64,000 nucleotides of DNA. Source: Escherichia phage NiC89. The stretch is from the sequence record LC620505.1; one strand, written 5' to 3'. Of this stretch, positions 51,185-54,690 are shown in pieces; the stretch's first letter is position 1; each line of letters opens with the position of its first letter. Below the pieces are notes generated by a model. That model worked only from the letters and a program-made list of their open reading frames with translations, did not search any database and was not told the DNA's origin. Made by a program: the position numbers and the translations under genes.

Positions 51185-51311
51185 AAATCAAACGTTTGTT
51201 CCATTTAAGCAAAGTATAATGAACATCTAAATCATCGACTGCTGTAACAATAACGATATGTCCGTTAACACGATAGTACTGGTCAATTTTAATCTCTTTA
51301 TCAATCATATC
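51141..51311 (-). CDS. Hypothetical protein, 56 aa (not in ORF track)
   Basis: Hand-translated MIDKEIKIDQYYRVNGHIVIVTAVDDLDVHYTLLKWNKRLI... Confidence 0.35.
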
Positions 51312-51338
51312 AATTCCTCAAAGGTAATTCATATGTTA

Positions 51339-51369
51339 ATAATACCACGGTTTGAACTTGTTGTAAACA
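51339..51369 (-). promoter_or_regulatory. T4-type early promoter
   Basis: GTTTAC (51364-51369), ~19-bp spacer, TGGTATTAT. Confidence 0.5.
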
Positions 51370-51449
51370 ACTTTGTGAAAAATATTTTAGGGAATGATAA
51401 GAAAGGAACGATAGCTTAGAATGGTAATATACAGAATGTAAGAAAGAAA

Positions 51450-51462
51450 GGCCCAGAGGGCC
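51450..51462 (-). terminator. Hairpin (ggccc-aga-gggcc)
   Basis: 5-bp GC stem just 3' of the nrdH-like stop. Confidence 0.35.
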
Positions 51463-51466
51463 CGTC

Positions 51467-51790
51467 TTAGTCTTCTATGATATCTCTATCATATCCAAGT
51501 GAAATGAGAGTTTCTTTGAATTGTTTAATGTTCTTTTGTCTAGAATCATTAATGAAAATGACAGGATACCGAATATTAAGAGATGTGAATCCGGCGCGTT
51601 TGGCAAGAGATACAATCAATGGGCGATCGTACTCAATCTTACCATTATTAGTAAGAACTTTATAGAAAGTAAAAGGAGCATTGAGCTCCTTTAGAAGTTT
51701 TGTAACTGATTGACATCCAGGACAACGACCTACTTCATCTGGAATTCCATAGACTTCAATCTTATTCTTTAAGTTCAAGTTTTGTTCCAC
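51467..51790 (-). CDS. nrdH: Glutaredoxin-like protein (NrdH-like), start uncertain
   Basis: Domain KIEVYGIPDEVGRCPGCQ...; no in-frame ATG near the domain start; in-frame GTG at 51788-51790 and TTG at 51776-51778; the only ATG (51919) adds a 50-aa hydrophobic extension overlapping the upstream ORF. Confidence 0.5.
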   Translation of the reverse strand: MEQNLNLKNKIEVYGIPDEVGRCPGCQSVTKLLKELNAPFTFYKVLTNNGKIEYDRPLIVSLAKRAGFTSLNIRYPVIFINDSRQKNIKQFKETLISLGYDRDIIED

Positions 51791-52073
51791 GAGAAATAAT
51801 TCCTTGGTAAGCCCAATAAGGAGGATTAACAGAATCCTCACCAGAGTTTTCTTCAGGAAAATAAACCTGGATAACGAAGCCGGATTCATCAAAGGTGAAA
51901 TAAGTAGTAGGCAGTTCACCTAACAAATCGGCACGAGCGTTGATTTCTTCGAGGTCTTGTTCACGTCCAGCCCAGAAGCTTGGGTTCAGACTACATTCAT
52001 AGAAATAATAGTCATTACCGAACATATCAAAACCATTCCAACTCTCTACTACATACCGCTCAAAACTAATCAT
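51762..52073 (-). CDS. Hypothetical protein, 103 aa
   Basis: ORF whose stop overlaps the glutaredoxin-like frame. Confidence 0.45.
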   Translation of the reverse strand: MISFERYVVESWNGFDMFGNDYYFYECSLNPSFWAGREQDLEEINARADLLGELPTTYFTFDESGFVIQVYFPEENSGEDSVNPPYWAYQGIISRGTKLELKE

Positions 52074-52075
52074 AA

Positions 52076-52291
52076 TTAAGCCTTTTTATCAAGAACAGCA
52101 TTCAGCTTGTTAGTAATTTTATCCAGACGCTCATTGAACTCACTAGAAGATAAGCCCTTTTCTGGAGAAATTAAACTAATAACGAAAAATACAACAATAA
52201 AAGGAATAAGGAAAATAGCTCCAACTGCCATAAACAAAAAGAACGTTACAGTTGTAAGAAAATCAGCTAAACCTTTACGAAATTTATACAT
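52076..52291 (-). CDS. Small membrane protein, 71 aa
   Basis: One TM segment; ORF. Confidence 0.45.
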   Translation of the reverse strand: MYKFRKGLADFLTTVTFFLFMAVGAIFLIPFIVVFFVISLISPEKGLSSSEFNERLDKITNKLNAVLDKKA

Positions 52292-52405
52292 ATTTACCCT
52301 TAATTAATTAACCAAGCATTGATAAGCACTAAACTATATTGCGAATAAAATTCTGGACCAAAATGAAAAATCATATCATTTATAGTATCCATAATGTAAT
52401 TCAAT

Positions 52406-52876
52406 TTAATCATGTGTCCACACCCCATCGGTATTTGACCAAAGTCGCTGATTATCTGATCCTCGCCACAGCTTTTTGGTCGGAAGATTTTTCTCATACT
52501 TCCCATCAATAATAACATCAACATATTTAAGCATTTCTAGTTGTTTAATATCTTCAAACTTATATCCTGTCCACAACCAAATGCTTTTATTGGGATAAAG
52601 ATTTTTAATAGTTTGAACCACAGAGTGAATCACGTCTCTGTTATCAGGATAAAGAGGGTCACCCCCGGTTATAGTTAATCCTTCTATATAATCATTATTC
52701 AAACATTCAATCAATTGTTCTAGTGTTTCACCAGTGAATGGAATACCATTTCTAGCATTCCATGTTGATTTATTATAACACCCTTCGCATTTATGCAAAC
52801 AACCTGTAACGAAAAGAACGACCCTGCATCCAGGGCCATTCACAAAATCGCAAGGATAAAATCTATCATAATTCAT
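52406..52876 (-). CDS. nrdG: Anaerobic ribonucleotide reductase activating protein NrdG (radical SAM)
   Basis: 156 aa; CxxxCxxC cluster (CLHKCEGC). Confidence 0.85.
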   Translation of the reverse strand: MNYDRFYPCDFVNGPGCRVVLFVTGCLHKCEGCYNKSTWNARNGIPFTGETLEQLIECLNNDYIEGLTITGGDPLYPDNRDVIHSVVQTIKNLYPNKSIWLWTGYKFEDIKQLEMLKYVDVIIDGKYEKNLPTKKLWRGSDNQRLWSNTDGVWTHD

Positions 52877-54690
52877 TGATGCTTAACCCTATGCATGATT
52901 TCTTTATTTTTACCGAGATTAAATCCGCGTTCGTTCGGATTTCCCAAATAACCGCATGTTCTTCTTATGGTATTCATCTTTTTGGGATCAGTTTCTCCAC
53001 AAATAGAACAAACAAATCCGTTTTCAGTAGGAGTCATTTCATGGGTACTTCCACATGTAAAACATTTATCTACTGGCATGTTAACACCAAAATAATCTAA
53101 ATGTTGTGCAGCATAATCCCATACAGCCTCAAGACCTTTTAAGTTATTTTTCATATCAGGAAGTTCAACATAAGAAATATGACCACCTGTCGCAATGAAA
53201 TGATATGGCGCTTCACGAGAAATCTTTTCAAACGGAGTAATATTTTCTTCTACTGAAACATGGAAACTATTAGTGTACCAACCTTTATCGGTAACATCCT
53301 TTACACTTCCATATTTTTCGGTATCAAGTTTACAGAAGCGATAACAAAGGTTTTCAGCAGGAGTAGAATACAAACTAAAAGCAAACCCAGTTCTTTCAGT
53401 CCACTGTTTAAGACGAGCATTCATTTTAGTTAAAATTTCCTGTCCAATATCACGACCGACAAGAATATTCAATTCGTGAATACCAATGTATCCTAGAGAC
53501 ACTGAACTTCTGCCATTTTTAAATAACTCAATTATATCGTCATCAGGTTTAAGACGAACCCCGAATGCACCTTCTTGGTAAAGAATAGGAGCAACAGTCG
53601 CTTTAACTCCTTTTAAGGAACTAATTCTACACATCAAAGCTTCAAAACATAAATCCATTCGTTCATTGAACAATTCGATAAATTTCTGTTCATTGAACTG
53701 TGTTCCAATATAAGAATCTAATGCGATACGAGGAAGATTCAGTGTTACAACACCAAGATTATTACGACCGTCAAGAATTTCATTACCGGTTGAATCTTTC
53801 CACACGCTCAAGAAACTACGACAACCCATTGGAGAAACAGGAATAGATGAGCCAGTGATAGCTTTATTGTTCTTAGCTGAAATAATATCAGGATACATTC
53901 TTTTGCTTGCGCACTCTAGAGCAAGCTGTTTAATATCATAGTTCGGGTCGTCTTTATAAAGATTAACACCTTCTTCAACGAACATAACAAGCTTAGGGAA
54001 AATAGGAGTTATCCCATCACGACCAAGACCTTTAATACGATTTTTCAGAATTGCTTTCTGAATCATTCGTTCAGTCCAGTCAGTTCCTGTACCAAATGTA
54101 ATTGTTACAAAAGGTGTTTGTCCGTTTGAACTAAAGAGAGTATTTACTTCATATTCATAAGCTTGGAATGCATCGTATACATCTTTTTCTGTTTTAGATT
54201 GAGCATAATTTAACGCATCAGCGATTTGCCATTTTTCTGCATCCTCAATATGTTTTGCATAGGTGCGTTTAACATAAGGAGAAAGTACTTTATCTACATT
54301 AGCAAAAGTCGTTCCGCCATATTGGTGAGAAGCAACCTGTGCAGTAATTTGTGCCATAATTGCAGTAGCAACACCGATTGATTTAGGAGTTTCAATCTGT
54401 GCATTACCTAGCTTAAATCCGTTCTCAAGCATTCCTTTTAAATCTACTAAACAACAATTAGTAAATGGAAGAGCAGGGGAATAATCAATATCGTGGAAAT
54501 GAATAATTCCGCTTTCATGCGCTTTCATAATAAAAGACGGGACCATATTTTTGGCAATGTGCTTAGACACAATACCAGCCATAAGGTCCCGTTGAGTTGG
54601 AAAAACACGAGAATCTTTATTAGCATTCTCGTTTAAAAGGTCTTTATTAGTTTTATGAATCAATCCTTCAATTTCTTTTTCAATTGTCAT
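52873..54690 (-). CDS. nrdD: Anaerobic ribonucleoside-triphosphate reductase NrdD, uninterrupted
   Basis: 605 aa; C-terminal glycyl-radical motif RRTCGYLG and Zn-ribbon cysteines; a single continuous ORF. Confidence 0.95.
   Translation of the reverse strand: MTIEKEIEGLIHKTNKDLLNENANKDSRVFPTQRDLMAGIVSKHIAKNMVPSFIMKAHESGIIHFHDIDYSPALPFTNCCLVDLKGMLENGFKLGNAQIETPKSIGVATAIMAQITAQVASHQYGGTTFANVDKVLSPYVKRTYAKHIEDAEKWQIADALNYAQSKTEKDVYDAFQAYEYEVNTLFSSNGQTPFVTITFGTGTDWTERMIQKAILKNRIKGLGRDGITPIFPKLVMFVEEGVNLYKDDPNYDIKQLALECASKRMYPDIISAKNNKAITGSSIPVSPMGCRSFLSVWKDSTGNEILDGRNNLGVVTLNLPRIALDSYIGTQFNEQKFIELFNERMDLCFEALMCRISSLKGVKATVAPILYQEGAFGVRLKPDDDIIELFKNGRSSVSLGYIGIHELNILVGRDIGQEILTKMNARLKQWTERTGFAFSLYSTPAENLCYRFCKLDTEKYGSVKDVTDKGWYTNSFHVSVEENITPFEKISREAPYHFIATGGHISYVELPDMKNNLKGLEAVWDYAAQHLDYFGVNMPVDKCFTCGSTHEMTPTENGFVCSICGETDPKKMNTIRRTCGYLGNPNERGFNLGKNKEIMHRVKHQ

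Follow-up and report, generated by a model that had tools for sequence, protein, structure and literature searches.

A GTG codon preceded by a Shine-Dalgarno sequence is the probable start of nrdH in a T4-type Escherichia phage

The closest described counterpart of the gene analysed here is nrdH of bacteriophage T4 (gp55.7, NP_049686, 102 aa; UniProt Y04G). Its record is named 'NrdH glutaredoxin' and carries the database annotation 'has glutaredoxin activity'. The gene has nrdG and 55.8 on its upstream side and 55.6 on its downstream side, begins at a GTG that is preceded by AAGGA, and has a terminator hairpin after its stop codon. In the T4 reference (NC_000866) the GTG follows right after the 55.8 stop, in the context AAGGAATAGTT-GTG-AAA-CAA-AAT-AAG-ATT-GAA. 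A GTG start is already known for T4-type nrdH and is ordinary there, being present in the T4 reference and in most curated relatives. It is annotated in RB51, Ac3, ATK48, S143_2, IME340, fHoEco02, e11/2, pEK20 and RB69. The bacterial NrdH-redoxin (E. coli NrdH; NCBIfam GlrX_NrdH) is likewise a small redoxin with a glutaredoxin fold encoded beside ribonucleotide reductase genes. The active-site motif of the bacterial NrdH family is C[VM]QC.

The window is a 64,000-nt stretch of DNA from Escherichia phage NiC89 (record LC620505.1), a T4-type phage belonging to Tequatrovirus. Over 51300-52400 it shares 100% identity with Escherichia phage vB-Eco-KMB42, and the region has matches in 684 phage records. 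The features of the locus are as follows.

52873-54690, minus strand: nrdD, 605 aa
52406-52876, minus strand: nrdG
52076-52291, minus strand: 55.8
51762-52073, minus strand: ORF103 (RB51ncORF079c / RB69ORF082c family), 103 aa, with a 29-nt overlap with nrdH
51467-51919, minus strand: open frame of 150 codons that holds the glutaredoxin-type domain
51791-51919, minus strand: 43-codon 'hydrophobic extension', considered spurious, the nrdH frame running across the ORF103 coding sequence
51801-51805, minus strand: putative Shine-Dalgarno sequence AAGGA, 10 nt 5' of the GTG and within the 3' end of ORF103
51788-51790, minus strand: proposed GTG initiation codon of nrdH, aligning with the GTG of the T4 reference
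51467-51790, minus strand: nrdH (T4 gp55.7 orthologue), 107 aa plus stop with the proposed GTG start; glutaredoxin fold
51776-51778, minus strand: TTG codon, Leu5 of NrdH, a C-to-T variant
51713-51724, minus strand: redox-active CPGC of NrdH, identified by reading the sequence
51439-51463, minus strand: intrinsic-terminator-like hairpin GGGCCCTCTGGGCC followed by a T run, found by a terminator scan directly 3' of the nrdH stop

The genes are arranged nrdD-nrdG-55.8-(ORF103)-nrdH-55.6 on a single strand, as in the orthologue group of T4 nrdH (gp55.7). The window shares with T4 the neighbours of nrdH, the AAGGA-preceded GTG and the hairpin after the stop codon. A terminator is annotated at the position equivalent to this hairpin in ATK48 and e11/2. 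The encoded protein is 98% identical to that of T4 (AF158101) over query residues 8-107. It is a T4 gp55.7 (nrdH) orthologue, a small CPGC protein of glutaredoxin fold whose gene is downstream of those of the anaerobic ribonucleotide reductase, nrdD and nrdG. Compared with T4, the window has five extra N-terminal codons, giving MEQNLNLKN rather than MKQN ahead of KIEVYG, with a common x-Q-N opening. The spacing between the Shine-Dalgarno sequence and the GTG is 10 nt in the window and 6 nt in T4, and the start of nrdH in the window overlaps a 103-aa gene that T4 lacks. The arrangement in RB51 is identical, with RB51ncORF079c upstream of an nrdH (YP_002854031) of 107 aa starting at GTG. RB51 DNA is 99.7% identical to the window over 51700-52080.

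A preliminary description of this locus, made from the sequence, reported a glutaredoxin domain with a CPGC motif, and both are present. The 107-aa product matches PF00462 with 23.9 bits against a cut-off of 22.9, as do 10 of 12 homologues, while the 150-aa open frame scores 22.5 bits, just under the cut-off. The C-P-G-C codons (51724-51713) correspond to residues 23-26, following beta-1, and C23 and C26 are invariant in the 12 homologues. The phrog_22 profile ('thioredoxin domain') also matches. On these sequence features we infer a redox function for the window NrdH. The annotation of the T4 record is the sole statement on glutaredoxin activity, as a literature search turned up no primary paper. 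An NCBIfam search with the protein gave no match to an NrdH model at E = 0.1 or better; the sole match was to the YruB family, at 16.2 bits against a cut-off of 88.6. The window motif is CPGC and not the C[VM]QC of bacterial NrdH-redoxin, and the window gene adjoins the class III genes nrdDG, whereas bacterial NrdH partners the class Ib NrdEF. The shared name nrdH comes from T4 gene nomenclature, and does not denote membership of the bacterial NrdH-redoxins. The closest solved structure by sequence (E = 4e-4) is that of the T4 glutaredoxin or 'thioredoxin' NrdC (PDB 1ABA, 1AAZ). NrdC is a distant paralogue encoded at another locus with an ATG start, and has CVYC where the window protein has CPGC, but the two share fold boundaries and the place of the CxxC. 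Residue 3 of 1ABA aligns with query residue 12, so that the fold starts at about K10; beta-1 of 1ABA begins 1-2 residues past its N-terminus.

Reading the nrdH frame codon by codon confirmed the earlier view that there is no ATG in a usable position. The ATG that had been placed at 51919 does not exist; codon 51919-51917 is GTG, the earliest start-like codon past the in-frame stop TAG (51922-51920). The sole in-frame ATG upstream of the glutaredoxin domain is at 51889-51887. The domain had been said to begin with KIEVYG at about 51755, after an extension of 50 aa. It does begin there in the protein, but KIEVYG starts at 51763, and the extension ahead of it would count 52 aa if begun at the GTG and 42 aa if begun at the ATG. 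The upstream 103-aa ORF ends at TAA 51764-51762, in a different frame from nrdH, as had been described.

We consider that nrdH starts at GTG 51790-51788 by ordinary Shine-Dalgarno-directed initiation, using the AAGGA located 10 nt upstream, and we give this a probability of roughly 0.9. This GTG was the first-named of the alternatives in the preliminary description, and is supported by homology with T4, by the best Shine-Dalgarno pairing and by conservation across genera. The context in the window is AAGGAATTATTTCTC-GTG-GAA-CAA-AAC-TTG-AAC-TTA-AAG-AAT-AAG-ATT-GAA. The duplex formed with the 3' end of 16S rRNA is calculated at −5.4 kcal/mol with a spacing of 9-10 nt, the best of seven candidate starts, and falls inside the range of −2.4 to −6.2 kcal/mol found for the neighbouring genes. 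The corresponding energies are −3.3 kcal/mol for TTG 51778, −0.9 kcal/mol for ATT 51760, and 0 or worse for GTG 51919 and ATG 51889. Of the spacings that work well, 10 nt is among the longest. Gating of initiation by RNA structure around the nrdH start was considered and rejected, as the predicted fold of 51740-51850 is unremarkable and indistinguishable from those of shuffled sequences (z = −1.09). Initiation at the GTG would give an NrdH of 107 aa, with MEQNLNLKN ahead of the domain that opens with KIEVYG. Homology, conservation, the substitution pattern and the strength of the Shine-Dalgarno pairing are direct observations, and from them we infer that GTG is the codon used in vivo. A full-text literature search found no experimental mapping of the nrdH start by N-terminal sequencing or by initiation-site ribosome profiling.

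The GTG is invariant in all 15 distinct sequences that carry ORF103. It lies in a stretch of 29 nt, CAAGGAATTATTTCTCGTGGAACAAAACT, that is also invariant in 15/15, and synonymous sites do not vary anywhere from CAAGGA to the end of the GTG. Just upstream of this stretch, 17 of 43 ORF103 codons (about 40%) vary at the third position in the same 15 sequences. In the proposed arrangement the Shine-Dalgarno sequence and the first nine codons of nrdH would be embedded in the 3' end of ORF103, in another frame, within the 29-nt overlap. Such a location of the nrdH start region would explain both why an ATG is unavailable and why the synonymous sites of ORF103 are frozen. The invariant 29 nt fit a double constraint, in which the same nucleotides would encode the end of ORF103 and provide the ribosome-binding site and first codons of nrdH. 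Conservation around the GTG could in part reflect constraint on the C-terminus of ORF103 rather than initiation of nrdH. Against this, the synonymous sites are frozen as well, and T4 and AV114 keep the GTG and the Shine-Dalgarno sequence without ORF103.

The combination of Shine-Dalgarno sequence and GTG recurs in Mosigvirus (AV114, ATK48 and S143_2), Gaprivervirus VR20, Dhakavirus WG01 and Enterobacter phage MY742. Its conservation takes in four named genera and one phage without a genus assignment. AAGGA or AAGGAG is kept in T4, AV114, VR20 and WG01. IMG/VR scans added 9 and 5 loci, all of them close relatives. Representative contexts are the following.

Mosigvirus AV114 (without ORF103): AAGGAATAATT-GTG
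Gaprivervirus VR20: AAGGAGTGATTTCCT-GTG
Dhakavirus WG01: AAGGAGTTATTTCCT-GTG
Enterobacter phage MY742: GAAGGTGGTATTACAC-GTG

The nrdH frame is open for no more than 2 codons ahead of the GTG in VR20 and 10 in WG01, and in both the sole in-frame ATG is downstream of the CPGC site. A start at that ATG would consequently drop the active site. In distant Straboviridae (Jiaodavirus, Gelderlandvirus, Pseudotevenvirus, Lazarusvirus and Krischvirus) an ATG is found 0-3 residues ahead of IEIYG. GenBank is inconsistent in its nrdH starts. VR20 and WG01 are annotated from the ATG past CPGC, KMB42 from its private TTG, and p000v has no nrdH CDS.

If the long open frame were real, translation from GTG 51919 or ATG 51889 would produce an NrdH of 140-150 aa with a hydrophobic, membrane-anchoring N-terminal extension. 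The frame is indeed open across the 43 codons in 15/15 close relatives, and hydrophobic residues make up 63% of the peptide. The pattern of substitution is that of ORF103, however. Among the 21 variable sites of 51919-51791 in the 15 sequences, 17 are third positions of ORF103, which are second positions in the nrdH frame. Read in the nrdH frame, 18 of the 19 variable codons change the amino acid; read in the ORF103 frame there are 18 variable codons, of which 15 have synonymous changes only and 3 are non-synonymous. The hydrophobicity is accounted for by the T-rich third positions of ORF103, 25 of 43 (58%) being T, because a T in the second position of a codon specifies F, L, I, M or V. Nor does the openness of the frame exceed chance expectation. 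When the ORF103 protein was held fixed and its synonymous codons resampled, an open stretch of 43 codons or more was obtained in the nrdH frame in 32% of 20,000 trials. Neither GTG 51919 nor ATG 51889 has a Shine-Dalgarno sequence (duplex 0 or worse), and the 43-aa extension has no PHROG match. The frame closes 2-27 codons 5' of the GTG in VR20, WG01, MY742 and AV114, and immediately in T4. Conservation of the hydrophobic extension at the protein level was looked for in homologues; an alignment of 12 of these from more than 10 genera has 0-9 residues before [KN]IE[IV]YG and the long hydrophobic segment in none. We therefore reject the long ORF from either codon on the substitution pattern, the missing Shine-Dalgarno sequence, the lack of conservation across genera and the chance expectation, and regard its translation as having virtually no prospect of being correct. 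The doubt about it in the preliminary description is supported. Judged by these sequence comparisons, the open frame 51791-51919 is best described as an untranslated off-frame reading of ORF103, and not as protein-coding in the nrdH frame. It provides an example of how an AT-rich gene read out of frame can mimic a hydrophobic leader peptide.

ORF103 itself matches phrog_2749 over its full length (E = 4.8e-49), and most variation within it is synonymous when read in its own frame, so that it represents a real gene family. Of 638 related phage records, about 420 have it in the interval separating 55.8 from nrdH; T4 lacks it. In VR20, WG01 and MY742 the gene preceding nrdH is related to ORF103 and has a similar motif, Y-Q-G-[IV]-I-S-[RC]-G, at its C-terminus. 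T4 has probably lost ORF103, as judged from its distribution.

Initiation at TTG 51778-51776 had also been suggested, and would give an NrdH of 103 aa (MNLKNKIEVYG...). The codon exists, and the KMB42 record, of identical sequence, annotates it as the start. It has a weak Shine-Dalgarno-like GGAA 6-7 nt ahead of it, with the −3.3 kcal/mol noted above. However, KMB42 is alone in annotating this start, and the codon is TCG in 14/14 other distinct sequences compared. A search with the 68-nt junction containing the TTG found 1 record of 417 that was 100% identical, namely KMB42. In NrdH the C-to-T change converts Ser5 to Leu5, but it leaves the ORF103 protein unaltered (CTC to CTT), which fits a neutral hitch-hiker. 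T4-type genomes lack codons corresponding to this region. Since it is found only in the window and KMB42 among the sequences compared, the TTG is not a conserved start. The RB51 codon at the TTG position is TCG (Ser5 in place of Leu5), and that single base allowed the automatic annotator to choose TTG in KMB42. As the start of nrdH the TTG is thus very improbable, although minor use in this phage, 12 nt downstream of the GTG, is possible.

Two further routes proposed earlier depend on translation of ORF103. Ribosomes terminating at TAA 51764-51762 might reinitiate, at ATT 51760 or by scanning back to the TTG or GTG, or a +1 shift might generate an ORF103-NrdH fusion. The ORF103 stop falls within the first codons of nrdH in the 29-nt overlap, which makes a degree of translational coupling physically plausible. 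But the position of the stop is not conserved among relatives, being TAA in 11 of the 15 sequences and TGA two codons further on in the other 4, and ORF103 is missing from T4-type and AV114-type genomes that nonetheless keep the Shine-Dalgarno sequence and GTG. In T4 the upstream stop comes before the GTG. ATT 51760 has essentially no Shine-Dalgarno pairing. Relative to ORF103, nrdH is in the +1 frame, so that a fusion would require a +1 shift. We saw neither a slippery nor a prfB-like site in ACAAAACTTGAACTTAAAGAATAAG, and 51762-51790 contains no X XXY YYZ heptamer and no CUU-UGA-type site. The local RNA fold, with z of about −1.1, also offers nothing in favor of either event. Together these routes seem to us slightly less credible even than a TTG start, and synthesis of NrdH is unlikely to need reinitiation at the ORF103 stop.

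The GTG is kept in several genera of Tevenvirinae, in contrast to the ATG of more distant Straboviridae. One might speculate that a weak GTG start whose Shine-Dalgarno sequence is buried in the 3' end of ORF103 has been retained across Tevenvirinae genera as a device that sets expression, with NrdH throttled or coupled to ORF103 and the TTG adding a shorter isoform in this phage. We think this doubtful, if somewhat less so than the alternatives above. The proposed start has little biological consequence, as a GTG is already annotated in the T4 reference. Its value is in annotation, where it would provide one consistent Shine-Dalgarno-GTG start for nrdH of Tequatrovirus, Mosigvirus, Gaprivervirus and Dhakavirus. 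At the other end of the gene, the RB69 reference nrdH (NC_004928 44089-44361) is annotated as 90 aa, and ends early (...IFLNDKKQRYCRV*) compared with all its relatives. The shortening has the look of a frameshift, or of a sequencing error, close to the C-terminus.

Some other aspects of the locus are worth recording. The nrdD gene of the window is uninterrupted and its stop overlaps the start of nrdG, whereas T4 has the I-TevII intron in nrdD and the homing-endonuclease gene mobC between nrdD and nrdG; the window has neither. The records of KMB42 and RB51 annotate a 37-aa ORF (RB32ORF074c family) overlapping the nrdG end. Its counterpart in the window (52300-52413, minus strand) sits within a longer mechanical ORF of 74 aa (52300-52524). 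The gap between nrdH and 55.6 (51309-51466) is 158 nt, with the terminator-like hairpin at 51463-51449. The same gap contains a promoter-like TTTACA-17-TATTAT with an extended −10 TG (51367-51339, minus strand). The sequence of these two elements suggests that a boundary between transcription units lies between nrdH and 55.6.
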